From Piscinibacter sp. (lineage in GTDB: Bacteria > Pseudomonadota > Gammaproteobacteria > Burkholderiales > Burkholderiaceae_C): DNA of 64,000 nt. This document shows, one piece after another, positions 1 through 53,250 of the stretch (positions are counted from its first letter, which is position 1; every line of letters begins with the position of its first letter). The position numbers and the translations under genes are program-made. The notes beneath the pieces were generated by a model. That model made no database searches, was not told the origin of the DNA, and saw only the letters and a program-made list of their open reading frames with translations. The DNA is taken from contig NZ_JASGKT010000001.1 of NCBI RefSeq assembly GCF_047600445.1, positions 454,853-518,852 of the forward strand. The letters run 5' to 3'.

Positions 1-96
1 GTGCTGCACGCGGTGCGCAAGATCGCCGGCGAGCGGCAGAAGAACAGCGAGCTGAACCAGCAACTGCACGTGCTGGAACAGACCCTGAAGGGTTGA
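1..96 (+). CDS. dnaA: Chromosomal replication initiator DnaA, C-terminal end (5' part outside window)
   Basis: The frame is open from base 1 and translates [31 protein letters not shown], then TGA at 94-96. This fits the conserved ..TVLHAxRKI.. tail of DnaA domain IV. The synteny dnaA-dnaN-gyrB supports the call. Confidence 0.75.
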
Positions 97-159
97 AGCC
101 TTGAAAACCGACCGGTGTCAAGGGACAACTCTGGGGACAGCGCCGGAACAAGCGCGCGG

Positions 160-168
160 CTGTCCACA
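160..168. promoter_or_regulatory. DnaA-box-like 9-mer CTGTCCACA
   Basis: Lies in the dnaA-dnaN intergenic region. Compare the consensus TTATCCACA; the core TCCACA is conserved. Confidence 0.35.
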
Positions 169-277
169 GCCTGCGGCCGACCGGCGCAGTTGTTCAAGTT
201 CGCGCGGGCCTTCTCCGGCCCTTGCCGCACAGGGTTTGGCCGTGCGTAAAGGCTTGACGGAAAAGGCGAAAATAGCG

Positions 278-286
278 TTCTCCACA
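278..286. promoter_or_regulatory. DnaA-box-like 9-mer TTCTCCACA (8/9 to TTATCCACA)
   Basis: Lies in the dnaA-dnaN intergenic region, about 45 nt upstream of the dnaN ATG. Confidence 0.45.
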
Positions 287-330
287 GAAAACCCGGTCCT
301 CTACTAAGACGACCAATTCAAGAGGTTGAC

Positions 331-4054
<3,724 letters not shown>

Positions 4055-4073
4055 GGTGTCGTCGGGTCGCGCG

Positions 4074-4094
4074 TCCACCGTCTGTCCACCGTCT
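4074..4094. repeat. Tandem direct repeat TCCACCGTCT-g-TCCACCGTCT
   Basis: Two exact 10-mers lie directly downstream of the gyrB stop and upstream of the next ATG. The second copy reads TGTCCAC, like the DnaA-box-like site at 160-168. Confidence 0.5.
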
Positions 4095-4100
4095 CTCGCG

Positions 4101-4466
4101 ATGGCTTCCGACATCAAGACCGTGGCGTTCATCGCCGACCAGAGCGGCCTCGGCGATCGCCTTGCCCATAAGCGCATGTTCGGCGAATACGCGCTTTATC
4201 TGAACACGAAGGTCGTTGCCTTCGTTTGCGACGACAAGCTCTACCTGAAGCCCACGGATGCGGCGCGCGCCCTGCTCGGGTCGCCCACGGAGGCGCCGGC
4301 CTATCCCGGCTCCAAGAACTATTTCTTGCTCGAGGAAGAGCTCGAGAACCCGACGCTTCTTGGCAGGGCCTTCGAAGTCACGGAGGCTGCTCTTCCGCTG
4401 CCGAAGCCCAAGCCGCCAGCCCGGCAGAAGTCTGGTCAGCGGGGCAAGGCGAAAGGTGCGGTCTAA
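4101..4466 (+). CDS. TfoX N-terminal-domain protein (TfoX/Sxy family, N-domain only)
   Basis: Start taken at the internal Met (MASDIKT...). [31 protein letters not shown] matches the TfoX_N signature (MFGg.gly.dg..Fa.v.dd.LYLK.D). G+C is noticeably lower than in gyrB or nadC. Confidence 0.7.
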
Positions 4467-4490
4467 AGCACGTTAGGCGTCACAACTCCC

Positions 4491-5036
4491 ATGCCCGTAC
4501 TTCCAGAGACTCTCAATACGCACAGGTTGCGACTCAGAAAGCCGAAAGCATCGGACGCCTCACGCATCTTCGCTGCATATGGACAAGACCCCGATGTAGC
4601 GCATTACATGATCTGGCGGCCGCACACAGAAGTCAGCCAGACTCAGGAGTTTATCTGCGACTGTTTGAGATCCTGGGAAGGTGAAGACCGCCTTCCCTAC
4701 GTAATTACTCGTCAGGATCGCGATGAACCGATCGGTATGCTCGATGCTCGGTTCCAGGGGCATATGGTCGACATCGGGTACGTCTTGGCCAAACGCGAAT
4801 GGGGCCACGGCTTCATGCCCGAGGCTATCGAAGCCCTGGTCAGCCAGTTGTTTTCCCTTCCTGGCATCTATCGCGTCCAGGCAACCTGCGACGTAGACAA
4901 CAAGGCTTCTCGACGAACTCTGGAGAAATCAGGCTTCGACCGGGAGGGTAGGTTTGAGCAGTACACAATCCATCCAAACATCTCATCCATACCCAGAGCT
5001 TGCTACATGTACGCGAAGTGCCGCAGTGACGCCTAA
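4491..5036 (+). CDS. GNAT family N-acetyltransferase (RimJ/RimL-like)
   Basis: 181-aa ORF. THRLRLRKPKASDA...GYVLAKREWGHGFMPEA...VQATCDVDNKASRRTLEKSGFDREG is typical of RimJ/RimL-type GNATs. Lines I counted were about 52-53% G+C, against 62-70% in neighbouring genes. Confidence 0.85.
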   Translation: MPVLPETLNTHRLRLRKPKASDASRIFAAYGQDPDVAHYMIWRPHTEVSQTQEFICDCLRSWEGEDRLPYVITRQDRDEPIGMLDARFQGHMVDIGYVLAKREWGHGFMPEAIEALVSQLFSLPGIYRVQATCDVDNKASRRTLEKSGFDREGRFEQYTIHPNISSIPRACYMYAKCRSDA

Positions 5037-5096
5037 CCCTTCGCTGGAGCCGACAAGCGCCATGCCGATGCTTGCGGCTCGGCTCAAACGCTAGGC
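5031..5096 (+). repeat. attC (59-base-element)-like imperfect inverted repeat
   Basis: GCCTAAC-CCTTCG-CTGGAGCCGACAAGC-gccatgccgat-GCTTGCGGCTCGGCTCAAACG-CTAGGC. The arms pair with unpaired bases. The length of 66 nt lies within the attC range. Confidence 0.5.
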
Positions 5097-5122
5097 GTCT
5101 CCGAGACTTCAAGAACCCGCGC

Positions 5123-5983
5123 TCACACCATCGCCAGATCCAGCCCGATATCCGCCGCCGGCGCGCTCTGCATCAACCGGCCGACCGAGACGTAGTCCAC
5201 GCCGCTCGCCGCAATCGTGCCGATCGTGTCGAGCCGCACGCCTCCCGAAGCCTCGGTCTTCGCGCGCCCTGCGACCAGCGCCACCGCCTCGGCCAGCGTT
5301 GCCGGCGCCATGTTGTCCAGCAGCAGATGGTTCGCTCCCGCCGCCAGCGCCGGCTCGATCTGGTCCAGCCGATCCACCTCGCAGATGATCCACGCGATGC
5401 CCGCCGCCTTCGCCCGCGCCACCGCCGCGCCGACACCCCCCGCCACCGCGATGTGGTTGTCCTTGATCATCGCCGCGTCCCACAGGCCCATGCGGTAGTT
5501 CTCCGCCCCGCCCAGCCGCGTCGCGTATTTCTCCAGGCGGCGCAGGCCCGGCAGCGTCTTGCGTGTGTCGAGCAGCGTTGCGCGGCCGCCCATCGCATGC
5601 ACGTAGGCACGGGTCATGGTGGCGATGCCGCTCAGGTGCTGCACCGTGTTCAAGGCGTTGCGCTCTGCCGTGAGCAGCGCGCGGGCGGCGCCGGTGACGC
5701 GCAGCAGTTCGGCGCCGGCCGGGACCGCCTCGCCCTCGGCGGCGAGGATGTCGACCGCGCACGCCGGGTCGAGATGGCGGAAGAAGGCCGCGGCGATCGG
5801 CAGGCCGGCGACGACGATATCCTCGCGGCTTGCCATCACGCCCGCGAAGCGCGCCTCGGCGGGGATGACGCTCTCGCTGGTCACGTCGCGACCGCCGCCG
5901 GGAAAGCCCACGCCGAGATCCTCGGCCAGCGTGGCGGCGATGAAGGCCGGAAGGTCGAAGCCGGGGAGGGTGAAGGCGCTCAT
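5123..5983 (-). CDS. nadC: Nicotinate-nucleotide pyrophosphorylase (quinolinate phosphoribosyltransferase; NadC/ModD family)
   Basis: 286-aa ORF with ...ERNALNTVQHLSGIAT...LDTRKTLPGLR..EKYA...GG..NYRMGL.D...IKDNH..., characteristic of NadC. Confidence 0.85.
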   Translation of the reverse strand: MSAFTLPGFDLPAFIAATLAEDLGVGFPGGGRDVTSESVIPAEARFAGVMASREDIVVAGLPIAAAFFRHLDPACAVDILAAEGEAVPAGAELLRVTGAARALLTAERNALNTVQHLSGIATMTRAYVHAMGGRATLLDTRKTLPGLRRLEKYATRLGGAENYRMGLWDAAMIKDNHIAVAGGVGAAVARAKAAGIAWIICEVDRLDQIEPALAAGANHLLLDNMAPATLAEAVALVAGRAKTEASGGVRLDTIGTIAASGVDYVSVGRLMQSAPAADIGLDLAMV

Positions 5984-6043
5984 GGCCCGTGATTGTCCGG
6001 CAGGAGTCCAGCGATCAAACTAGCTTCCAGCTTTGGCGACCGC

Positions 6044-6463
6044 TCACCAGCTCCCGCTGTTGGCCATAGACACCCAGGGCTCGGCCGGCGGCAGCGGCGC
6101 GCCGGCCTGCAGCAGTTCGATCGAGATCGCGTCGGGCGAGCGCACGAAGGCCATGCGGCCGTCACGCGGCGGGCGGTTGATGGTCACGCCGTGGCGTTGC
6201 AGGCGCTCGCAGGCGGCGTAGATGTCGTCGACTTCGTAAGCGAGGTGGCCGAAGTTGCGCCCGCCGCCGTAGGCCTCGGGATCCCAGTTGTGCGTCAGCT
6301 CGACCTGCGCCTCGTGCTGCCCCGGCGCGGCAAGGAAGTAGAGCGTGAAGCGGCCGGCCGGCACCTCGTGCCGGCGCACCAGTTCCAGGCCGAGGGCATC
6401 GCAGTAGAAACGCAGCGAGGCTTGCGGGTCGCTCACGCGGACCATGGTGTGCAGGTACTTCAT
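6044..6463 (-). CDS. gloA: Lactoylglutathione lyase (glyoxalase I, VOC family)
   Basis: Internal start gives 139 aa. MKYLHTMVRVSDPQASLRFY...VELTHNWD...FGHLAY.VDD parallels E. coli GloA (MRLLHTMLRVGDL...IELTYNWG...YGHIAL). Confidence 0.85.
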   Translation of the reverse strand: MKYLHTMVRVSDPQASLRFYCDALGLELVRRHEVPAGRFTLYFLAAPGQHEAQVELTHNWDPEAYGGGRNFGHLAYEVDDIYAACERLQRHGVTINRPPRDGRMAFVRSPDAISIELLQAGAPLPPAEPWVSMANSGSW

Positions 6464-6498
6464 GGCGCGATTGTCGGCCGGGCGCGGCCCGCACGGGC

Positions 6499-6798
6499 TC
6501 AGCGGGGCCGGGCGGCGTCGTCGCCGGGCGGGTGATCCAGTTCGACGACGTGCATGCCGTCGCGCAGGTCCATCGACGAGGTGGCCCAACTGTCCATCGG
6601 CAGGGTCGGGCGGTCGTCGAAGTCGGCCGGCGTGGTGCTGCGCGGCGGGCCGCTGTCGTCGATCTCGACCCACTCGCCCTCGGGCTTGCTGTCGGTGATG
6701 CGCCAGACGCGCCGCCGCGCCGACGGCGCGCGCGAGGGCGACGCGGGCCAGCGGCCCAGCGTCAGCAGTCTGACGACGGCGAACGTGACGCGGTTCAC
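6499..6798 (-). CDS. Hypothetical small protein
   Basis: High GC3 in this frame. A possible GTG start follows ACGGAA. No recognisable family. The start is uncertain. Confidence 0.35.
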   Translation of the reverse strand: MNRVTFAVVRLLTLGRWPASPSRAPSARRRVWRITDSKPEGEWVEIDDSGPPRSTTPADFDDRPTLPMDSWATSSMDLRDGMHVVELDHPPGDDAARPR

Positions 6799-7043
6799 TC
6801 CGGGATTCCGTGCGGGGGTGTTGAACGAGAGCCGCAAAGATAGGCAGCCGCTCGCCGCGCGTCATCCGCCGCGAAGGGCTTTGTCCGTCAGCGTGCACGC
6901 ACCCGGCGCCAGGGGTCGCCGCCGGGCGACGGGCATGCGACGGAAATCACGGGCATGGTGCGGGTTGCGGGCGAGCGCGTCGTGCGCCCGGGGGCGCGCC
7001 GGACAATGATGGCGCTCCGTCCCGCAGGCCCACCCGACCGCCG

Positions 7044-10644: not shown

Positions 10645-12152
10645 GCCGCCAGCCGCGCCGCCAGCGCGGCGCAGCGGCGCGCCACGGTGGCCGGGTCGGC
10701 GTCGGTGTCCAGGCGCAGCGCGCCTTCGTCGGCGGCCGGGATCTCGACGATGCGCAACTGCAAACCCAGCACCTCCTGGTCGGCGTCCGAGGCGTCGCGG
10801 CCCTCGGCCGCGCGGCGCGCGATGCGCTCGCGCAGCACCGCCTCGGGCGCCACGCATTCGACGAGGCGGAACTCGGCGCCGTGCGCCTCGGCGAGCGCGC
10901 GCAGCGCGTCGCGTTCGTGGCGGCGCAGCGCGGCGGCGTCGACGACCACGTTCAGGCCCGCCTCCAGCAGCGTGCCCGCCAGGCGGCCCAGGCACGCGTA
11001 GGTGCGCCGCGTCATCGCGGCGGCGTAGAGCGCGCCGGCCTGCGCCGGCGTCGGCCGCGCCTCGGCGGCCAGCCCGGCCAGGCGTTTGCGTTCGACGTCG
11101 GAGCGCAGCCGCAGCGCGCCCAGCGCCTGCAGCAGTTCGAGCGCGACCGTGCTCTTGCCCGAGCCCGACAGCCCGACGGTCAGCAGCAGCAGCGGCCGCG
11201 CGCGGCGCGCCGCGGCGATCTCGCGCGCCACGCCGATGTCGCGCGCGCAGGCGGCTTCGTCGTTGCGCAGCGCCGCCACCTGGGCGCGCACCAGCGCGCG
11301 GTAGACGGCGAAGAAGGGCAACAGCGCCAGGCCCTCGTGGTCGCCGCCGCGCTCGGCGTAGGCGCTGGCGAAGCGCCAGGCGAGCGATGGCAGGCCGTGG
11401 CGCCACAGGTCCATGAAGACGAAGGCGGCGTCGGCCATCGTGTCGGCGTGGCGCAGCGCCGGGTTGAATTCGATCGCGTCGAAGGGCACCGGCCGACCAT
11501 CCAGCATCACGATGTTGGCCAGGTGCAGGTCGCCGTGGCCCTCGCGCACGCGGCCCTGGGCGCGGCGCAGCGCGAGCCGCGGCGCGATGCGCTCGAACTC
11601 GCGTTCGCTCCAGCCGTGCAGCTCGCGCAGGCCGCGTGTGTCGCCGAGCGCAGCGAAGTTAGCGCGCGCCCAGCGCAGCACGTCCTCGGGCTCGCCCCAG
11701 GCGGCCGGCGAGGCGGGCAGCGCCGCGTGGAAATCGGCCACCTCGCGCGCCAGCGCATCGACCTCGGCCGCGCCCAGCGCGCCGCGCGCGGCCAGGCGGG
11801 CCAGCAGCAGGTCGTCGTCGAAACGGCGCATGCGCAGCAGCCAGTCGATCGCGCCGGATGCATCGCCGGGCGTGCCGACGCGCGGCGCGGCGAGGCTGCC
11901 CTGCACCGGCCGCACGTCGAGGTAGAGCTCCGGCGCGGTGCGCCGGTTCAGGCGCAGCTCTTCCTCGCAGTCGCGGCGCCGCGCCGCCGGCGTCGAGAAG
12001 TCGAGGAAGGGCAGGCGCAGCGGCTTGCGCAGCTTGTAGGCGAAGTCGCCGGCCAGCAGCAGCGTCGAGATGTGCGTCTCGATCGTGCGCGTGCCGGGGC
12101 CGAGCGCCGCGCCCAGCGCGGCGGCCAGCGTGCGGTGCTCGGCCGGCGTCAC
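10638..12152 (-). CDS. Bifunctional phosphotransferase-like (APH/choline-kinase fold) / P-loop kinase (AAA_33-like) protein
   Basis: 504 aa from a GTG start. The N-terminal half has HGDLHLANIV (an APH-type catalytic loop). The C-terminal half has the Walker A motif GLSGSGKST. The GTG overlaps the RND stop codon (GTGA). Confidence 0.8.
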   Translation of the reverse strand: MTPAEHRTLAAALGAALGPGTRTIETHISTLLLAGDFAYKLRKPLRLPFLDFSTPAARRRDCEEELRLNRRTAPELYLDVRPVQGSLAAPRVGTPGDASGAIDWLLRMRRFDDDLLLARLAARGALGAAEVDALAREVADFHAALPASPAAWGEPEDVLRWARANFAALGDTRGLRELHGWSEREFERIAPRLALRRAQGRVREGHGDLHLANIVMLDGRPVPFDAIEFNPALRHADTMADAAFVFMDLWRHGLPSLAWRFASAYAERGGDHEGLALLPFFAVYRALVRAQVAALRNDEAACARDIGVAREIAAARRARPLLLLTVGLSGSGKSTVALELLQALGALRLRSDVERKRLAGLAAEARPTPAQAGALYAAAMTRRTYACLGRLAGTLLEAGLNVVVDAAALRRHERDALRALAEAHGAEFRLVECVAPEAVLRERIARRAAEGRDASDADQEVLGLQLRIVEIPAADEGALRLDTDADPATVARRCAALAARLAAQ

Positions 12153-15100
12153 GTCGGCTGCGCCGGCGCCGCGCCGGCGGCGTGGCCGCGCCGGTGCGCG
12201 TGCCGGGCGAACCACTGCACGAGGTCGTCGACGAAGGTGAACACCACCGGGATCACCAGCAGGCTCAGGAAGGTGCTGGTGATCAGCCCGCCGATCACGA
12301 CGATGGCCATCGGCGCGCGGAAGCTCGGGTCCACGCCCAGGCCGAGCGCGATCGGCATCATGCCGGCGCCCATCGCGATGGTGGTCATCACGATGGGCCG
12401 CGCGCGCTTGCGGCAGGCGTCGAGCAGCGCGTCCCAGCGGGCGAGGCCGTGCTCGCGGCGCGCCAGCACCACGTAGTCGATCAGCAGGATGGAGTTCTTG
12501 GTCGCGATGCCCATCAGCATGATCAGGCCGATCATCGAGGGCATGGACAGCGAGGACTGCGTGATGAACAGCGCCAGGAACGCGCCCGGCACCGACAGCA
12601 CCAGCGCGGCCAGGATGGTGGCCGGCTGCACGAAGTCCTTCAGCAGCAGCACCAGCACGACGTAGATGCACAGCACGCCGGTGATCATCGCCAGGCCGAA
12701 GCTCTCGAACAGCTCGCCCATCGCCTCGGCGTCGCCCACCGAGGTCTGGATCACGCCGGGCGGCAGGTTCTTCAGCGAGGGCAGCGCCAGCGCGGCCTTC
12801 TCGACCTCGCCGAGCGGCTGGCCGTTCAGCTCGATCTCGAAGTTGACGTTGCGCAGCCGGTCGTAGCGCGCGATCTCGGTCGGGCCGGAATCGATCGCCA
12901 GCGTCGCGACGTTGCCCAGCGGCACCGGCCCGCGCGCGCCGGGCACCGGCAGGCGCGACAGCAGCGCGAGGTCGGCGCGCGCGTCGTCGGCGAGCTTCAC
13001 CACCACCGGCACCTGGCGTTCGCTGAGGTTCAGCTTCGGCAGGCCCTGGTCGTAGTCGCCGTTGGTGGCGATGCGCAGCGTGTCGGCGATGGCCTGCGAG
13101 GTGACGCCCAGGTCGGCGGCGCGCGCGAAGTCGGGCCGCACGATCAGCTCGGGCCGCACCAGGCTGGCGCTCGAGGTCACCGCGCCTATGCCGGGGATGC
13201 CGCGCAGCTCGCGCTCGACCTGCGCGGCGTGCGCGCTCAGCACGCGGCCGTCCTCGCCGGCCAGCACCAGCACGTACTTCTCGCTGGAGGCGCCCAGGCC
13301 GACCTTGACGCGCGCGCCCGGCAGCACCTCGAGCGCGTCGCGCAACTGCGCCTCGATGGCCTGCTTGGACAGGCCGCGGCGCGCGTCGCGGTGCGTCATG
13401 TTGATCGTCAGCACCGCGCGGCGCACCTCGGCGAGCGTGGGCGCGAACGGGTCGGAGCCGGCCGCGCCGCCGCCGATCGCGGTGTAGACCAGCTTGACGT
13501 GCTCGTTCTTCTGCACCAGCGCGCGCGCCTGCTCGGCGGCGGCGGTGGTCTCGGCCAGCGTGCTGCCCGGCGGCAGCGTCAGCGTCACCTGGGTCTGCGA
13601 GAGGTCGTCGGGCGGGATGAAGCCGGTGGGCAGCAGCGGCACCAGCGCGAAGCTGCCGACGAAGAACGCCGCGGCGGCCAGCAGCGTCCAGAAGCGGTGC
13701 TTCAGGCACCAGCGCGCCCAGCCGAGGTAGACGTCCAGCCAGCGCGCCGGCTTCTCCACGTGCTTGGGCGAGCGCAGGATGTAGGCCGCCATCATCGGCG
13801 TCAGCATGCGCGCCACCACCAGCGAGAAGAACACCGCGATCGCCGCCGTCCAGCCGAACTGCACGAAGAAGCGGCCGGCGATGCCGCTCATGAAGGCGGT
13901 GGGCAGGAACACCGCGATCAGCGTGAAGGTGGTGGCGATCACCGCCAGGCCGATCTCGTCGGCGGCCTCCATCGCGGCCTGGTACGGCGTCTTGCCCATG
14001 CGCAGGTGGCGCATGATGTTCTCGATCTCGACGATCGCGTCGTCGACCAGGATGCCGACCACCAGCGACAGGCTCAGCAGCGTCACCGTGTTGACCGTGA
14101 AGCCCATCAGGTGCATCACGAAGAAGGTCGGGATCGCCGACAGCGGCAGCGCCACCGCCGAGACGAAGGTGGCGCGCCAGTCGCGCAGGAACAGCCACAC
14201 CACCAGCACCGCCAGCGCCGCGCCCTCGTAGAGCAGCTTCATCGAGCCGTCGTAGTTCTCCTGCACCGGATCGACGAAGTTGAAGGCCTCGGTGATGGCG
14301 ATGTCGGGGTGCTCGGCCTTGAGCTTGGCCAGCGCGGCGCGCACGCCGTCGGTGACCTCGATCTCGCCGGCGCCGCGCGAGCGCACGATCTCGAAGCCGA
14401 CCACCGGCTTGCCGTCCAGCAGCGCCGCCGAGCGCGGCTCGGCCACGGTGTCGTGCACGCGCGCCACCTGGTCGAGGCGGATGCGGCGCCCGTCGGCCAG
14501 CGCCACCTCCATGCGCGCCAGCTCCTCGGCCGACTGCACGGTGGCGATGGTGCGCACCGACTGCTCTGCGCCGCCCAGGTCGGCGCGGCCGCCCGAGGCC
14601 TCCTGCTGCACCTGGCGGAGCTGGCGCGAGATGTCGGCGGCGGTGGCGTTGAGCGCCAGCAGCCGCGCCGGGTCCAGCTCGACGCGCACCTCGCGCGCGA
14701 CGCCGCCGACGCGCGACACCGCGCCGACGCCGGGCACCGCCAGCATCGCCTTGGCGACCTGGTTGTCGACGAACCACGACAGCGCCTCGTCGTCCATCTT
14801 CTGCGAGGCCACCGTGTAGGTGAGGATGGGCGTGCCGGCGAGGTCGACCTTCTTGATCACCGGGTCGCGCAGGTCGGACGGCAGGTCGGAGCGCACGCGC
14901 GAGACGGCGTCGCGCACGTCGTCCACCGCTTCCTGCGTGGGCTTCTCGAGGCGGAACTCGGCGGTGATCGTGACGGTGCCGTCGGTCAGGCTGGTGTACA
15001 GGTGCTTGAGGCCCTGCACCGTGGCCAGCGAGTTCTCGATCTTGCGCGCCACCTCGGTTTCGAGCTGCCCCGGCGAGGCGCCGGGCAGCGCGGCGACGAT

Positions 15101-46624: not shown

Positions 46625-47200
46625 ATGAGCGACAAGCATAAGGCAAACCCTGAGCTCGACGGCCTCGCGGTGCTGCTGCTGCCGGGCTGGCTGAACTCCG
46701 GCCCCGAGCATTGGCAAAGCCGCTGGGAAGCGCTGCACGGCCATCGCCGCGTCGAGCAGGCCGACTGGGAATGGCCGCGCCGCGGCGACTGGATGGCGCG
46801 GCTCGACGACGTGCTGCTGCAGACCCCGCAGCGCGCGCTGCTGGTCGCGCACAGCCTGGGCTGCCAGCTCGTGGCGAGCTGGGCCGCGCATTCGGCGCTG
46901 CACGATCGTGTCGCCGCGGCGCTGCTGGTCGCGCCGCCGGACACCGAGCGCGACGACATGCCGCCGAACCTGTTCAACTGGCGCCCCATCGTGCGCCGCG
47001 CCTTGCCCTTCCCGAGCCTGGCGGTGGTCAGCAGCGACGACCCCTACTGCGCGCCGGCGCGCGCGCAGCGCATGGCGGCCGACTGGGGCAGCGAGCGGGT
47101 CGACATCGGCGCGCGCGGCCACATCAACGGCGAGTCGGGCCTGGGCGACTGGCCCGAGGGCCTGGCCCTGCTCGGCCGCGTGGCCGGGCGCGCCGGCTGA
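46625..47200 (+). CDS. Alpha/beta serine hydrolase, YdeN/RBBP9-like
   Basis: [17 protein letters not shown], the nucleophile motif AHSLGC, and ...SDDPYC...GHIN are typical of the Ser_hydrolase (DUF1234-type) family. Confidence 0.8.
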
Positions 47201-47219
47201 TCGCGGACAATCGCGCCCC

Positions 47220-48113
47220 ATGGTCACCAAGAAACCCAAGGGCCTCGGGCTCGGGCTGGAAGCGCTGCTCGGCCCCAAGGTCGCCGACGCGCCGCGCCCG
47301 GCCGGCGACGCGCCGCCTGCCGCGCTCAAGCTCGACGTGCTGCAGCCCGGCAAGTACCAGCCGCGCACGCGCATGGACGAGGGCTCGCTGTACGAGCTGG
47401 CCGAGAGCATCAAGGCGCAGGGCGTGATGCAGCCGGTGCTGGTGCGCCCGCTCGCCGGCGGCCGCTACGAGATCATCGCCGGCGAGCGGCGCACGCGCGC
47501 GGCGCGGCTGGCCGGGCTCGACGAAGTGCCGGTGCTGGTGAAGGACGTGCCCGACGAGGCCGCCGCGGCGATGTCGCTGATCGAGAACATCCAGCGTGAA
47601 GACCTCAACCCGCTCGAAGAGGCGCAAGGCCTCAAGCGCCTGACCGACGAGTTCGGCCTGACGCACGAGCAGGCCGCGCAGGCGGTGGGCCGCTCGCGCA
47701 GCGCGGCGAGCAACCTGCTGCGCCTGCTCAACCTGAGCGAGCCGGTGCAGCAGATGCTGATGGCCGGCGACCTCGACATGGGCCATGCGCGCGCGCTGCT
47801 GCCGCTCGACGGCGCGCAGCAGATCCTTGCCGCGAACGACGTGGCGGCGCGCAAGCTCAGCGTGCGCGAGGCCGAGAAGCTCGTCGCAAGACTGCAGCAC
47901 CAGCGCCAGCAGCCGCTGCTGCGCGTGGCCAAGGAAAAGCCGCGCGACGTGACGCGCATCGAGGAAGAGCTGTCCGATGCGCTCACGGCCAGGGTCGAGA
48001 TCCGCATCAAGAAGCGCACCAAGCGCGGCGAACAGGGCGAGGTGGCGATCGCCTTCGGCTCGCTCGACGAGTTGAACGGCCTGCTCGACAGGCTCGGCCT
48101 GTCCGCGCGCTGA
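47220..48113 (+). CDS. parB: Chromosome partitioning protein ParB (Spo0J)
   Basis: [10 protein letters not shown], the ParB box QPVLVRP...[17 protein letters not shown], and the [26 protein letters not shown]. Confidence 0.96.
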
Positions 48114-48195
48114 GGCGTAGCGCGACGCGCGCTTTGCGAAACTTTGCACGCGCCGGCGTGCCCGTGCGTGCCGCGCCGATCAACCAATGTGCGCG

Positions 48196-48211
48196 AGGCA
48201 CGTTAATTGCT
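48196..48211 (+). promoter_or_regulatory. Sigma-54 (RpoN) -24/-12 promoter AGGCACG-ttaa-TTGCT
   Basis: GG-N10-GC with flanks matching TGGCACG-N4-TTGCW. It lies about 195 nt upstream of the prkA ATG in a lower-G+C intergenic region. Confidence 0.6.
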
Positions 48212-48404
48212 GAATTCGCGGCGACAAGACCCTTATGAGGAACTACGCCCGAATGCACGGTTAAATCGGCTTTACGGCAGGAACGATTTGCCGCAAGCTT
48301 GAATCGACATCGCTGGACGCGCGAGACCGATACCGGAAAGCTCTGATGGAGCCCGCCAGGACTTCATCAGAACTTCCCCAGTCCTGAATGAACAGGAGAT
48401 CGGC

Positions 48405-50327
48405 ATGGACGTGATCAGCAGCTTCGCCGCGCGTTACGAGCGCACCCGCGAAGAAGAGCTCTCGCTCGAGGACTACCTCGCCGAGTGCAAGCGCAACCCC
48501 CTGGCCTACGCCACGGCCGCCGAGCGCATGCTCAAGGCCATCGGCGAGCCCCAGACCATCGACACGCGCAACGACCCGCGCCTGTCGCGCATCTTCGCGA
48601 ACAAGATCATCAAGATCTATCCGGCCTTCGCCGAGTTCTACGGCATGGAGGACTCGATCGAGCAGGTGGTCTCGTACTTCCGCCACGCCGCGCAGGGCCT
48701 GGAGGAGAAGAAGCAGATCCTCTACCTGCTCGGGCCCGTGGGCGGCGGCAAGAGCTCGATCGCCGAGCGCCTGAAGCAACTGATGCAGGAGGTGCCCTTC
48801 TACGCGATCAAGGGCTCGCCGGTGAACGAGTCGCCGCTCGGGCTGTTCGACGCCGTGGAGGACGGGCCGATCCTGGAGAAGGAATACGGCATCCCGCGCC
48901 GCTACCTGAACCGCATCCTGTCGCCCTGGGCGGTGAAGCGCCTGGACGAGTACGGCGGCGACATCCGCAAGTTCAAGGTCGTCAAGCGCTACCCGTCGGT
49001 GCTCAAGCAGATCGGCATCGCCAAGACCGAGCCGGGCGACGAGAACAACCAGGACATCAGCTCGCTCGTCGGCAAGGTCGACATCCGCAAGCTCGAGACC
49101 TTCGCGCAGGACGACCCCGACGCCTACAGCTTCTCCGGCGGGCTGTGCCTGGCCAACCAGGGCCTGCTCGAATTCGTCGAGATGTTCAAGGCGCCGATCA
49201 AGGTGCTGCACCCGCTGCTGACCGCCACGCAGGAAGGCAACTTCAAGGGCACCGAGGGCTTCGGCGCGATCCCGTTCGACGGCGTGGTGCTCGCGCACAG
49301 CAACGAGAGCGAGTGGAAGGCGTTCCGCAACAACAAGAACAACGAGGCCTTCCTCGACCGCATCTACATCGTCAAGGTGCCGTACTGCCTGCGCGTCTCG
49401 GAAGAGATCAAGATCTACGAGAAGTTGCTGCGCGGCTCGTCGCTGGCCAACGCCACCTGCGCGCCCGGCACGCTGAAGATGATGAGCCAGTTTGCGGTGC
49501 TGACGCGGCTGAAGGAGCCGGAGAACTCGTCGCTGTTCAGCAAGATGCTGGTCTACGACGGCGAGAACCTGAAGGACACCGACCCGCGCGCCAAGAGCTT
49601 CCAGGAGTACCGCGACTACGCCGGCGTCGACGAGGGCATGAGCGGCATCTCGACGCGCTTCGCCTTCAAGATCATCTCCAAGGTGTTCAACTTCGACTCG
49701 ACCGAGGTGGCCGCCAACCCGGTGCACCTGATGTACGTGCTCGAGCAGCAGATCGAGCGCGAGCAGTTCCCGGCCGAGACCGAGCAGAAGTACCTCGCCT
49801 TCATCAAGGAGCACCTGGCCACGCGCTACGCCGAGTTCATCGGCAAGGAGATCCAGACCGCCTACCTGGAGAGCTACAGCGAGTACGGCCAGAACATCTT
49901 CGACCGCTACGTCACCTACGCCGACTACTGGATCCAGGACCACGAGTACCGCGACACCGACACCGGCGAGGTGTTCGACCGCGCCAGCCTGAACGCCGAG
50001 CTGGAGAAGATCGAGAAGCCGGCCGGCATCGCCAACCCGAAGGACTTCCGCAACGAGATCGTCAACTTCGTGCTGCGCGCGCGCGCCAACAACGCCGGCA
50101 AGAACCCGCTGTGGACCAGCTACGAGAAGCTGCGCACGGTGATCGAGAAGAAGATGTTCTCGAACACCGAGGAGCTGCTGCCGGTGATCAGCTTCAACGC
50201 CAAGGCGAGCGCCGACGAGGCCAAGAAGCACGAGGACTTCGTGACGCGCATGGTCGCCAAGGGCTACACCGCCAAGCAGGTGCGGCTGCTGTGCGAGTGG
50301 TATCTGCGGGTGAGGAAGTCGTCCTGA
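48405..50327 (+). CDS. prkA: PrkA-family serine protein kinase (YeaG)
   Basis: 640 aa. SLEDYL......P..YA.A.ERML.AIG, the P-loop LLGPVGGGKSS, and near-colinear similarity to E. coli YeaG throughout. Confidence 0.96.
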   Translation: MDVISSFAARYERTREEELSLEDYLAECKRNPLAYATAAERMLKAIGEPQTIDTRNDPRLSRIFANKIIKIYPAFAEFYGMEDSIEQVVSYFRHAAQGLEEKKQILYLLGPVGGGKSSIAERLKQLMQEVPFYAIKGSPVNESPLGLFDAVEDGPILEKEYGIPRRYLNRILSPWAVKRLDEYGGDIRKFKVVKRYPSVLKQIGIAKTEPGDENNQDISSLVGKVDIRKLETFAQDDPDAYSFSGGLCLANQGLLEFVEMFKAPIKVLHPLLTATQEGNFKGTEGFGAIPFDGVVLAHSNESEWKAFRNNKNNEAFLDRIYIVKVPYCLRVSEEIKIYEKLLRGSSLANATCAPGTLKMMSQFAVLTRLKEPENSSLFSKMLVYDGENLKDTDPRAKSFQEYRDYAGVDEGMSGISTRFAFKIISKVFNFDSTEVAANPVHLMYVLEQQIEREQFPAETEQKYLAFIKEHLATRYAEFIGKEIQTAYLESYSEYGQNIFDRYVTYADYWIQDHEYRDTDTGEVFDRASLNAELEKIEKPAGIANPKDFRNEIVNFVLRARANNAGKNPLWTSYEKLRTVIEKKMFSNTEELLPVISFNAKASADEAKKHEDFVTRMVAKGYTAKQVRLLCEWYLRVRKSS

Positions 50328-50347
50328 GGCCGCGAGCCGAGGCACCG

Positions 50348-51625
50348 ATGGCCCTGCAAAGCATCATCGATCGCCGGCTGGCGGGCAAGAACAAGTCCAT
50401 CGGCAACCGCGAGCGCTTCCTGCGCCGCCACAAGGAGCAGATCCGTGAGGCGGTCAAGCGCGCGGTCGACGGCCGCGGCATCCGCGACATCGAGAACGGC
50501 GAGGACATCCGCATTCCCAAGCGCGACATCAGCGAGCCGGTGTTCGGCCACGGCCAGGGCGGCCGGCGCGAAATGGTGCACCCGGGCAACAAGGACTTCG
50601 TGCGCGGCGACCGCATCAAGCGGCCCGAGGGCGGCGGTGGCGGTGGGGGCGGCGGCGGGCAGGCCAGCGATTCCGGCGAGGGCGAGGACGACTTCGTCTT
50701 CCACCTCAGCAAGGAAGAGTTCATGCAGGTCTTCTTCGACGACCTCGCGCTGCCCAACCTCGCGCGCACCACGCTGGCCGAAACGCCCGAGTACAAGACG
50801 CACCGCGCCGGCTTCTCCAGCGACGGCACGCCCAACAACCTGCACGTGGTGCGCTCGATGCGCGGCGCGCTGGGCCGGCGCATCGCGCTGGGCACCGAGT
50901 CGCGCCGCGAGCTGCGCGCGCTGGAAGAGCGCCTGGCCGAGATGAAGCGCCAGGGCGAGGCGCCGGCGCGCGAGATCGAGGAAGTCGAGCGGCAGATCGA
51001 GGCCCTGCGGGCGCGGCTCGACCGCATTCCCTACCTCGACCCGATCGACCTGCGCTTCCGCAGCCGCGTGCGCGTGCCGGTGCCCACCTCCAAGGCGGTG
51101 ATGTTCTGCCTGATGGACGTCTCCGGCTCGATGGACGAGGCGCGCAAGGACCTGGCCAAGCGCTTCTTCATCCTGCTGTACCTGTTCCTGACGCGCCACT
51201 ACGAGAAGATCGACATCGTCTTCATCCGCCACCACACGCAGGCGCAGGAGGTCGACGAGCACGAGTTCTTCCACGCCACCGAGACCGGCGGCACGGTGGT
51301 CTCCAGCGCGCTGGTGCTGATGGACGAGATCGCGCGCGCGCGCTACCCGACCAGCGAGTGGAACATCTACGGCGCGCAGGCCAGCGACGGCGACAACTGG
51401 CACCACGACAGCGGCCGCTGCCGCGATCTGCTGAACGACCGCATCCTGCCGCTGTGCCGCTACTTCGCCTACGTGCAGGTGGCCGAGGAAGAGCAGAACC
51501 TGTGGGACGAATACGCCGCGCTGGCCGCCGAGAGCAAGGTCTTCGCGGTGCGCAAGGCGACCGAGGCCAGCCAGATCTACCCGGTGTTCCGCGACCTGTT
51601 CAAGAAGGAAGGGCACCCCGCATGA
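50348..51625 (+). CDS. yeaH: YeaH/YhbH family protein (DUF444, vWA-like)
   Basis: 425 aa. IIDRRL.GKNKS..NR.RFL.R, a poly-Gly tract, and ...MDVSGSM.... It follows prkA. Confidence 0.93.
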   Translation: MALQSIIDRRLAGKNKSIGNRERFLRRHKEQIREAVKRAVDGRGIRDIENGEDIRIPKRDISEPVFGHGQGGRREMVHPGNKDFVRGDRIKRPEGGGGGGGGGGQASDSGEGEDDFVFHLSKEEFMQVFFDDLALPNLARTTLAETPEYKTHRAGFSSDGTPNNLHVVRSMRGALGRRIALGTESRRELRALEERLAEMKRQGEAPAREIEEVERQIEALRARLDRIPYLDPIDLRFRSRVRVPVPTSKAVMFCLMDVSGSMDEARKDLAKRFFILLYLFLTRHYEKIDIVFIRHHTQAQEVDEHEFFHATETGGTVVSSALVLMDEIARARYPTSEWNIYGAQASDGDNWHHDSGRCRDLLNDRILPLCRYFAYVQVAEEEQNLWDEYAALAAESKVFAVRKATEASQIYPVFRDLFKKEGHPA

Positions 51626-53250
51626 CGCGCAAGGCCAACTTCGTGCCCGACGGCACCGCCGACCTGTTCGAGCCCGAGCTCGCCGGCGCGCTGAAGGGCC
51701 GCGTGCGGCGCGCCGCCGACATCGTGACGCCGCCGCGCGCCGCGCGGCCGCTGGAGGCGCCGAGCGACTGGTCGTTCGAGCTGATCGAGCAGTACCACGC
51801 GGTGATCCGCGAGACCGCCGAGCGCTTCGGCCTCGACACCTACCCGAACCAGCTCGAGATCATCACCGCCGAGCAGATGATGGACGCCTATGCCTCGGTG
51901 GGCATGCCGGTGAACTACCGCCACTGGAGCTACGGCAAGGAGTTCATCGCCACCGAGAAGAACTACAAGCGCGGCCACATGGGGCTGGCCTACGAGATCG
52001 TCATCAACTCCAACCCCTGCATCAGCTACCTGATGGAGGAGAACACGATGGCGATGCAGGCGCTGGTGATCGCGCACGCCGCCTACGGCCACAACAGCTT
52101 CTTCAAGGGCAACTACCTGTTCCGCATGTGGACCGATGCGGCGTCGATCATCGACTACCTCGTCTACGCGAAGAACTACGTCGCCGACTGCGAGGAGCGC
52201 CACGGCGTCGCCGCGGTCGAGGAGCTGCTCGACAGCTGCCACGCGCTGATGAGCCACGGCGTCGACCGCTACCGCCGCCCGAGCAAGCTCAGCCTGACGC
52301 AGGAGCTGGCGCGCAGCAAGGACCGCGAGGCCTACGCGCAGCAGCAGGTCAACGACCTGTGGCGCACGCTGCCGAAGAAGGCCGAGAAGGCCGCCGACGA
52401 GAAGGAGCCGCGCCGCTTCCCCGAGGAGCCGCAGGAGAACCTGCTGTACTTCATCGAGAAGAACGCGCCGCTGCTCGAACCCTGGCAGCGCGAGGTGGTG
52501 CGCATCGTGCGCAAGGTGGCGCAGTACTTCTACCCGCAGCGCCAGACGCAGGTGATGAACGAGGGCTGGGCGACCTTCTGGCACCACAAGCTGCTCAACA
52601 CGCTGTACGACGACGGCCGCATGTCCGAGGGCATGATGATCGAGTGGCTGAAGTCGCACACCAACGTGGTGTACCAGCCGCCGGTGGGCCACCCGCACTA
52701 CAGCGGCATCAACCCCTACGCGCTCGGCTTCGCGATGTACACCGACATCAAGCGCATCTGCGAGAACCCGACCGACGAGGACCGCGCCTGGTTCCCCGCC
52801 ATCGCCGGCAGCGACTGGCTCGAGACGCTCGACCACGCGATGCGCAACTTCAAGGACGAGAGCTTCGTCGGCCAGTACCTCAGCCCCAAGCTGATGCGCG
52901 ACTTCCGGCTGTTCTCCATCGTCGACGACGAGCGCGACAGCGAGCTGGAGGTGGCGGCGATCCACGACGAGAGCGGCTACCGCGCGGTGCGCGAGGCGCT
53001 GTCGCGCCAGTACGACCTGGGCCAGCGCGAGCCCAACATCCAGGTGTGGAGCGTCAACCTGCGCGGCGACCGCTCGCTGACGCTGCGCCACACCCAGCAC
53101 GACGACCGCCCGCTGCACGACACCGCGCAGGAAGTGCTCAAGCACGTGGCGCGGCTGTGGGGCTTCGGCGTGCACCTGGACAGCGTCAACGCCCGAGGCG
53201 AGACCACCAAGCGCTGGAGCGTGCCGCCGCCGGCTCAGCAGGGCGGCTGA
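51622..53250 (+). CDS. ycgB: SpoVR family protein (YcgB)
   Basis: ATGA overlap with yeaH. The motifs NYRHWS.GK.F, GLAYE.VINSNPC.SYLME.N and VIAHA.YGHNSFFK.N are present. Confidence 0.93.
   Translation: MTRKANFVPDGTADLFEPELAGALKGRVRRAADIVTPPRAARPLEAPSDWSFELIEQYHAVIRETAERFGLDTYPNQLEIITAEQMMDAYASVGMPVNYRHWSYGKEFIATEKNYKRGHMGLAYEIVINSNPCISYLMEENTMAMQALVIAHAAYGHNSFFKGNYLFRMWTDAASIIDYLVYAKNYVADCEERHGVAAVEELLDSCHALMSHGVDRYRRPSKLSLTQELARSKDREAYAQQQVNDLWRTLPKKAEKAADEKEPRRFPEEPQENLLYFIEKNAPLLEPWQREVVRIVRKVAQYFYPQRQTQVMNEGWATFWHHKLLNTLYDDGRMSEGMMIEWLKSHTNVVYQPPVGHPHYSGINPYALGFAMYTDIKRICENPTDEDRAWFPAIAGSDWLETLDHAMRNFKDESFVGQYLSPKLMRDFRLFSIVDDERDSELEVAAIHDESGYRAVREALSRQYDLGQREPNIQVWSVNLRGDRSLTLRHTQHDDRPLHDTAQEVLKHVARLWGFGVHLDSVNARGETTKRWSVPPPAQQGG

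Follow-up and report, generated by a model that had tools for sequence, protein, structure and literature searches.

A probable stranded remnant of integron gene cassettes directly downstream of gyrB in a Piscinibacter-like chromosome

Isolated integron gene cassettes have been catalogued in thousands as SALINs (single attC sites lacking an integron integrase), i.e., one coding sequence with one detectable recombination site, attC, and with neither an integrase gene, intI, nor another attC nearby, and a route by which cassettes insert into the genome has been described. Such insertion at genomic sites (attG) is favoured near the origin of replication, oriC, and the inserted cassettes are expressed from resident promoters (bioRxiv 10.1101/2022.09.11.507474). 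The locus described here lies directly after gyrB in a stretch of 64,000 nt (called the window, with positions counted from its first letter) of a Piscinibacter sp. contig of 831 kb, NZ_JASGKT010000001.1. It includes an acetyltransferase gene of the GNAT superfamily, which an initial annotation, made from the sequence alone, had taken for a solitary integron-type cassette. The locus resembles SALINs in this coding sequence with its one detectable attC, in its chromosomal position near the origin and in its place downstream of a resident transcription unit; it differs from them in being, by origin, the remnant of two cassettes, and in having a surviving attC that is decayed (GCT, truncated variable stem, L-box mismatch). 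The initial annotation had judged a position so close to dnaA to be unusual, a view at odds with the preference of genomic cassette insertions for the origin (bioRxiv 10.1101/2022.09.11.507474).

As regards attC sites, those of Sphaerotilaceae cassette arrays (loci L014, L011 and L077, the last one identical to L037) belong to the same family as the site of the window, with the pattern GCCTAACCC(T/C)TCG...GCTC(A/G)AACGTTAGGC, but they are 126–132 nt long, their centre is long and branched and their GTT is intact, whereas the window site has 66 nt and GCT. The attC of the class 1 integron cassettes aac(6')-Ib and aac(6')-31 (72 bp; L073, L069) has in common with it the first 12 nt, GCCTAACCCTTC, the ...TCAAACG-TAG end, a similar length and the extrahelical positions. 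Its L box is different (GAGGGGG/CCCCCTC vs. GAGCCG/CGGCTC), these class 1 sites are functional, with GTTAGAT, and their genes code for aminoglycoside acetyltransferases unrelated to the window GNAT. In Sphaerotilaceae of the Rubrivivax and Piscinibacter types, large arrays are found on the chromosome, and their attCs form a homogeneous family, which is related to the clinical class 1 aac(6')-Ib attC.

We consider it highly probable (about 0.88) that positions 4097–5110 are what is left of two, possibly three, integron cassettes stranded directly after gyrB in a Piscinibacter-like (Sphaerotilaceae) chromosome. The GNAT unit at 4473–5090 (+ strand; 618 bp, counted by integron convention from the TT of G|TTAGGC to the G of the right-hand core) is shown to be a cassette, and 5031–5096 its own attC. 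Its ORF, at 4491–5036 (+), is intact, codes for 181 aa and is promoterless, the gap between the core and the ATG being of 12 nt, without Shine-Dalgarno sequence. At its 5' end stands a G|TTRRRY site (4472/4473), at its 3' end its own attC (5090), and the unit recurs in arrays. The ORF is bracketed by a 12-nt inverted repeat: the left arm (4472–4483, GTTAGGCGTCAC) is made of the R' core GTTAGGC and a 5-nt extension, and the right arm (5026–5037), which is its exact reverse complement, of the extension and the inverse core R'', GCCTAAC (5031–5037), inside which the TAA stop of the GNAT gene is located (5034–5036). The left arm is the part of the cassette's own attC that shifts to the 5' end of the cassette upon integration. 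A third, imperfect copy of the repeat, GCTAGGCGTCTC, is present at 5090–5101. The G+C content of 4473–5096 is 55.9%, compared to 66.7% for gyrB, 72.0% for nadC and 71.6% for the window. On the repeats, the ORF, the stop within the core, the 12-nt gap, the GCTAGGC right-hand core and the lowered G+C, the initial annotation was accurate. When the 1-kb region is shuffled with its dinucleotides preserved, 25 of 500 shuffles contain a perfect inverted repeat of at least 12 nt, and this 5% frequency led us to drop the inverted repeat as evidence by itself; its significance comes from its position, from the matches to attC models and from the homology to a real cassette array.

As an Rfam scan of 4000–5600 (E ≤ 10) gave no match, we built attC covariance models on 13 sites from class 1 integrons of seven plasmids (aadA1, aadA2, psp, qacL, aac(6')-IIa, cmlA1, VIM-66, VIM-4, aac(6')-31, aac(6')-Ib4, estX, IMP-1 and arr-3). 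The aadA1 attC was checked beforehand: R100 and about 2000 other plasmids contain it with 100% identity. A MAFFT alignment of the full-length sites (A1) misaligned the L' arms and was discarded in favour of sequences whose variable centres were cut to 16 nt, which brings the arms in register, and on which the canonical R-box/L-box structure was imposed. In the alignment of the resulting model, R1, 88.9% of the pair cells are paired, and covariation exceeds that of all 500 shuffles. A second model, R2, is the R1 set minus the two aac(6') attCs most like the window site. These models give many matches in cassette arrays and none in non-integron loci. When both strands of the window (128 kb) are searched with R1, filters off and E ≤ 10, the sole match is exactly 5031–5096 (+), over its full length, with 32.5 bits and an E-value of 1.1e-5. 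With R2, the same positions rank first (21.0 bits, E 0.006), the next match having 10.5 bits.

The architecture of these 66 bp is that of an attC. Described attC sites measure 57–141 bp in total and have unpaired central spacers of 5–6 nt; the base at position 16 is extrahelical, the bottom strand has a T at position 23/24, a stem of 6 bp separates these two positions, and the cleavage triplet of the bottom strand is 5'-AAC-3' (PMC5027507). In the window site, R'' (5031–5037, GCCTAAC, an RYYYAAC inverse core at the 3' end of the ORF) is followed by a 5-nt spacer, CCTTC (5038–5042), by L'' (5043–5052), which includes the extrahelical base 5046 (position 16), and by the extrahelical A/T 5053 (position 23). 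The centre is composed of a stem (5054–5058/5070–5074) and a loop (5059–5069), and the right part of L' (5075–5083), a 6-nt spacer, TCAAAC (5084–5089), and R' (5090–5096, GCTAGGC). Both G5046 and A5053, the latter a T on the bottom strand, are unpaired, with the stem GAGCCG/CGGCTC between them; on the bottom strand position 16 is a C and not the usual G, as it is in the attCs of cmlA1, VIM and estX. The bottom strand of 5026–5102 folds at -21.4 kcal/mol (z -3.9, with none of 200 shuffles as good), and the top strand folds less well, at -18.3 kcal/mol. We therefore regard 5031–5096 as an attC by descent and architecture, which no longer complies with the consensus and is decayed. Other natures of this element were considered and rejected: a REP element is ruled out by its being single-copy in the window, an intrinsic terminator by the lack of both a T-run and a terminator-like site.

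The GNAT cassette is also present elsewhere, in a multi-cassette array. A metagenome scan yields L037 and L038, which, like L077, are 97.0% identical to window positions 4470–5061; in this array the GNAT cassette has the same 5' end, TTAGGCGTCACAACTCCCATG. The L037 array contains nine attCs of 126–127 bp, which start with GCCTAACCCTTCGCTGGAG and end with GCTCAAACGTTAGGC and fall into two subtypes, distinguished by compensatory changes in the L boxes (GAGCCG/CGGCTC vs. GAGGGG/CCCCTC). It also includes an inverted PIN/VapB cassette, a feature typical of sedentary chromosomal integrons. The two GNAT genes differ at 17 of 546 nt (96% amino-acid identity, dS 0.088, dN/dS 0.19), and the window gene would, from these substitutions, still be under purifying selection. 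Other GNAT homologues, at 65–80% identity, are nearly all on short metagenome contigs. L007 and L039 carry the GNAT unit in arrays at 78–79% nt identity; in L007, four small co-directional ORFs have attC-like sites between them, and the GNAT has GTTAGGCGCCACAATCCACATG before it and GCCTAAC...GTTATGC after it. The extended R-box pairing, TTAGGCGYCAC/GTGNCGCCTAA, is found in the array copies of L007 and L037 as in the window. The integron origin proposed by the initial annotation is thus borne out, both by the attC-model match and by this near-identical copy, with the same 5' boundary, in a nine-attC array.

The array gives a reference for the decay of the window site. In comparison with the attC of the L037 GNAT, the left 28 nt are identical and the 38 nt on the right have 6 substitutions, among which C5091, a T of the crossover triplet in the array, and G5081, an A of L' in the array, whose change weakens one L-box pair. 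About 60 nt of the attC centre are missing: the site matches positions 1–28 and 85–126 of a model of the family, with the deletion break between two CAAGC(A/G)CC repeats. The initial annotation had proposed that the crossover T is replaced by C, which the array confirms; the 60-bp internal deletion and the L-box mismatch have to be added to it.

The second cassette is represented by the tfoX-like gene located between gyrB and the GNAT (4101–4466, +; 121 aa from the ATG at 4101; Pfam TfoX_N), the first of the cassette-derived genes of the locus. This gene is shown to be a cassette gene in related arrays, and in the window only two attC core motifs are left of its site. Its homologues in L011, L014, L016 and L018 (76–88% nt identity) lie within attC arrays, and R1 detects, in their surroundings, 11 attCs on the + strand of L014 and further ones in the other three loci. 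In these arrays the tfoX ATG is 24–36 nt past a G|TTAGGC core, and the stop falls in an inverse core, which is GCCTAAC in L011, L014 and L018 and the degenerate GCCTAGC in L016. The 3' end of the gene reads ...GAAAGGTGCGGCCTAAC in L018 and L014, where it is followed by an attC of about 100–130 nt, and ...AAAGAGTGCGGCCTAAC in L011. In the window it reads ...GAAAGGTGCGGTCTAA-AGCAC-GTTAGGCGTCAC, i.e., an R''-like core, 4–5 bases and the R' core with which the GNAT cassette begins. From this comparison, the tfoX attC would have collapsed to about 18 nt at 4461–4478 (+), composed of the R''-like GTCTAAA, with the tfoX stop TAA at 4464–4466, GCAC and R' GTTAGGC, an internal deletion having probably taken the L boxes and the variable stem. 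None of the attC models matches 4461–4478. The homology of the gyrB flank ends near 4065, and that of the tfoX cassette starts at 4097–4101; the 35-nt junction between the gyrB flank and tfoX harbours a perfect tandem duplication of the 11-mer GTCCACCGTCT (4073–4094). The tfoX relatives retrieved by the genome scan have tfoX away from gyrB and nadC and gave no test of the empty site, but they are informative in that they carry the gene in arrays.

The tfoX gene modifies the initial annotation in several respects. The GNAT cassette is solitary as to detectable attCs but not strictly so by origin, as its tfoX-like neighbour is a second cassette. It does lie between gyrB/tfoX and nadC, although the tfoX-like gene is cassette-derived and not a resident flank, and no intI or second attC is detected in the window, where a remnant of the tfoX attC may nevertheless be recognised at 4461–4478. 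Within the 64 kb the locus therefore has the composition of a SALIN, with one attC and neither intI nor another attC nearby. It is not a complete integron, as no IntI homologue is present, nor a CALIN (cluster of attC sites lacking an integron integrase), as no second recognisable attC is present; it is a SALIN by detection and a decayed two-cassette CALIN by origin. A tblastn search with IntI1 gave a sole match (51172–51453, E 0.14), which was rejected as it corresponds to the DUF444 gene of a PrkA-DUF444-SpoVR operon and not to a recombinase.

The region downstream of gyrB was also compared among relatives. The gyrB gene (1562–4054, +; Pfam) is the resident upstream gene and the likely source of read-through transcription. 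Its product is 93–96% identical to proteins of Piscinibacter-like Sphaerotilaceae, the closest named relatives being Piscinibacter. Synteny around gyrB with four of these relatives (L066, L067, L075 and L076) stops at about 4065, and the tfoX-GNAT unit is not found after gyrB in any of the four, which argues against vertical ancestry. L066 (95% GyrB identity) is syntenic with window positions 1–4065 and 6046–6951, with 8.7 kb of unrelated genes in between; this block, at 11672–20385 of L066, extends from an AraC to a peroxidase gene. After gyrB, L067 has a ScoMcrA/NOV_C gene (12494 onward), and L076 an island with E1/JAB, HTH/M78 and type I restriction genes (12500 onward). The L075 contig ends 257 nt past gyrB (12500–12756) in unrelated iterated TTGCGACTGGCG/TTGAGACT.GCGC motifs, which look like the end of a mobile element. 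As the gyrB flanks differ among relatives, 4066–6045, with tfoX, GNAT and nadC, constitutes a variable segment, and vertical conservation of the cassettes is ruled out. The gene's 3' flank, at about 4055–4100 in the window, is hypervariable among these relatives and possibly a hotspot of integration.

On the other side of the cassettes, the 14-nt junction GTCTCCGAGACTTC (5097–5110, +) separates the attC from a block with nadC (5123–5983, - strand; Pfam QRPTase), a gene convergent with the GNAT that is in the variable segment and is not a cassette. Family cassettes start with TTAGGC(G/C)(T/G)C..., the sequence that follows the last crossover on its right, CTAGGCGTC, looks more like the opening of a cassette than like random target DNA, and the alignment of the window with L077 extends to 5104, 8 nt past R'. 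From this resemblance, 5097–5110 might possibly be the first bases of a third, lost cassette. The nadC block (5111–6005, i.e., the ORF with 12 nt downstream and 22 nt upstream) is 94.7–96% identical at the nt level to nadC of soil metagenomes (L028–L036; dS about 0.09–0.11), with both flanks differing across three contexts and again in the window. As nadC homologues (93–97%) occur in these three unrelated contexts, they are unfit as a reference for the empty site. This single housekeeping gene behaves as a discrete block. That nadC could be an inverted cassette sharing the attC is ruled out, the orientation and homology of the attC tying it to the GNAT; moreover, no attC match at E ≤ 1 is found in three nadC loci (L028, L032 and L034), nor any on the nadC strand of the window.

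How the cassettes came to this position can be read in two ways, neither of which exceeds an even chance. The first, to which we give nearly that chance, is that they are the leftover of a longer array (CALIN), once present here or moved here by recombination other than by integrase, and then trimmed by deletions, through which the neighbouring cassettes, the greater part of the tfoX attC and the centre of the GNAT site were lost. It accounts for two cassette-derived genes that follow each other in the order and orientation of an array, for the cassette-start-like bases after the last R' and for the internal deletions evident in both attCs, although 64 kb contain neither an intI pseudogene nor attI nor any further attC remnant, and although relatives have no array after gyrB. 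The second, which is a little less probable but still a serious possibility, is that an integrase put an excised circle of one or more cassettes into an attG or secondary site after gyrB, with later decay of the sites. The left junction of the GNAT cassette, exactly at G|TT, and the variability of the gyrB flank among relatives agree with such an event, and genomic insertion by IntI has been demonstrated, with its preference for oriC and expression from nearby promoters. However, the outer left junction, upstream of tfoX, lacks a TTRRRY cassette start, the right junction (G|CT followed by AGGCGTC) is cassette-like and not target-like, and GCT departs from the GWT consensus reported for such sites (bioRxiv 10.1101/2022.09.11.507474).

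Two further explanations were considered. An assembly chimera, in which reads of different organisms were joined at integron repeats into a gyrB, tfoX, GNAT and nadC mosaic, would account for the steps in composition at the junctions and for the different contexts in which the best relatives of each block are found; we hold it very improbable, since the changes private to the window attC (60-bp deletion, 6 substitutions) and the collapsed tfoX attC are not expected from reads of intact arrays, since the flanks 1–4065 and 6046–6951 are syntenic with one and the same relative, L066, and since the contig is 831 kb long. That the GNAT is vertically inherited, its core motifs being coincidental and its hairpin, which lies between convergent genes, a REP-type repeat or a bidirectional terminator, is even harder to believe, for although a 12-nt perfect inverted repeat alone is found in 5% of shuffles, the element has no T-run, is single-copy in the window and matches the attC model over its full length, while a 97% identical cassette sits in a nine-attC array and relatives lack the unit.

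The stranded-cassette reading is the preferred one, and a history can be proposed for it. The cassettes would have come from a sedentary chromosomal integron of the host lineage. They would have arrived either by insertion of an excised cassette circle by the integrase at a non-canonical genomic site or by movement of a piece of an array. They would since have been fixed by decay of the sites, through the 60-bp deletion of the variable stem, the A-to-G change in L' and the AAC-to-AGC change in the bottom-strand cleavage triplet, the last of which takes away the micro-homology for strand exchange. The promoterless genes, co-directional with dnaN-gyrB, would probably be transcribed by read-through. 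No promoter-like or terminator-like site is found in 3900–6200, and read-through expression is plausible as none lies between gyrB and the attC.

Regarding the host lineage, the L077 contig, from the metagenome-assembled genome (MAG) GCA_029779845.1, is 100% identical to the L037 array, and the same MAG, from a Piscinibacter-like betaproteobacterium, includes the closest GyrB, that of L075 (96% identity). If the binning is right, an array with a near-identical cassette belongs to the host's own lineage. Between the window and this MAG, dS is 0.14–0.18 for core genes and 0.088 for the GNAT, the latter being based on only 10 synonymous changes, and these values would fit common descent or more recent exchange alike.

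Several points weigh against the proposed origin or limit it. The 5090–5096 core, GCTAGGC, departs from GTTRRRY, the bottom strand having AGC instead of AAC. The attC models are our own, built on sites with trimmed centres, and their E-values are rough; they are distinct from the model of IntegronFinder. The 5' boundary (TTAGGC...) of the tfoX cassette is missing, its origin being based on the homologues and the 18-nt remnant. The link between the array and the host lineage relies on metagenomic binning, and expression is only predicted. Finally, as CTAGGCGTC is cassette-start-like, a simple insertion of a single cassette at a GWT site is not the best fit, an array fragment and recombination with a residual core site explaining both junctions equally well.

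The locus offers a clean natural example of cassettes that leave an array and become ordinary chromosomal genes. What makes it readable is the combination of a near-identical array copy, of the landing site and of the decay steps, namely the deletion of the variable stem, the L-box mismatch, the loss of the crossover triplet and the reduction of the second attC to two cores. It reveals no new mechanism, isolated cassettes and genomic insertion being already known. A broader idea, which we regard as rather unlikely, is that the 3' flank of gyrB is, in this lineage, a recurrent capture point, where cassettes that escaped from the chromosomal array come under dnaA-dnaN-gyrB read-through and are locked by loss of the crossover T. 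If it were true, domestication would be a selected and repeatable way for cassettes to pass from the integron 'memory' into the set of constitutive genes of the chromosome.

Cassettes that have become fixed may repeatedly lose the crossover T. Diverged GNAT copies are found in L003 and L001, with 70% and 77% nt identity to the window, respectively. The L003 copy has a mutated core at its 5' boundary (1800–1822), GCTAGGCGGCAC, with the same G-C-TAGGC change as in the window; it is in a housekeeping context, has lost R'' and the stop region, and no attC is detected. The L001 copy also has a mutated 5' boundary core (2470–2500), G-TAGGCGGCAC; it lies among small co-directional ORFs, with no clear attC after the GNAT.

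As for the function of the GNAT, acetyltransferases of this superfamily are common cassette cargo. The window protein has a full-length match to the domain of RimJ/RimL-type N-acetyltransferases (Acetyltransf_3, PF13302; E 1e-26), and its best structural match is PDB 3fbu (E 2e-9). As to its substrate, it gives only sub-threshold matches to BlmB/TlmB, RimJ/RimL and AAC(6'), and it reaches no curated NCBIfam cut-off (39.6 bits for the TlmB/BlmB N-terminal domain, whose cut-off is 625). PADLOC finds no defence-system match for the GNAT or tfoX-like proteins, an exact look-up of the window GNAT returns no record, and a blastn search of plasmids with 4440–5120 gives no match.

Some observations concern the relatives of the cassette genes and the rest of the window. 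L014, on the chromosome of Rubrivivax sp. RP6-9 (NZ_CP187368.1, 5104837–5117124), is an array of 12 kb with at least 11 attCs of 126–129 bp in one orientation, and similar arrays are found in R. rivuli (L011), in Caenimonas (L016) and in a Burkholderiaceae MAG (L018); no intI is present within the analysed stretches of these four loci. The closest tfoX homologue (86–88% nt identity) is outside a cassette context, in L013 (5237–5590), which belongs to the MAG GCA_029779845.1: it starts 2 nt after a LuxR-type gene, overlaps the next ORF and is without attC, and may be another domesticated copy. Beyond nadC, an ORF of 284 aa (6044–6898, -) matches lactoylglutathione lyase at residues 145–265 only, the corresponding gene of L066 coding for 139 aa; its true start is probably internal, and what precedes it may, as is the case in L066, be a small gene of its own. 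Lastly, 46908–53250 contains a ParB gene followed by the PrkA/DUF444 (YeaH)/SpoVR operon, and the G+C content dips to 63.6% at 48–50 kb, over prkA.

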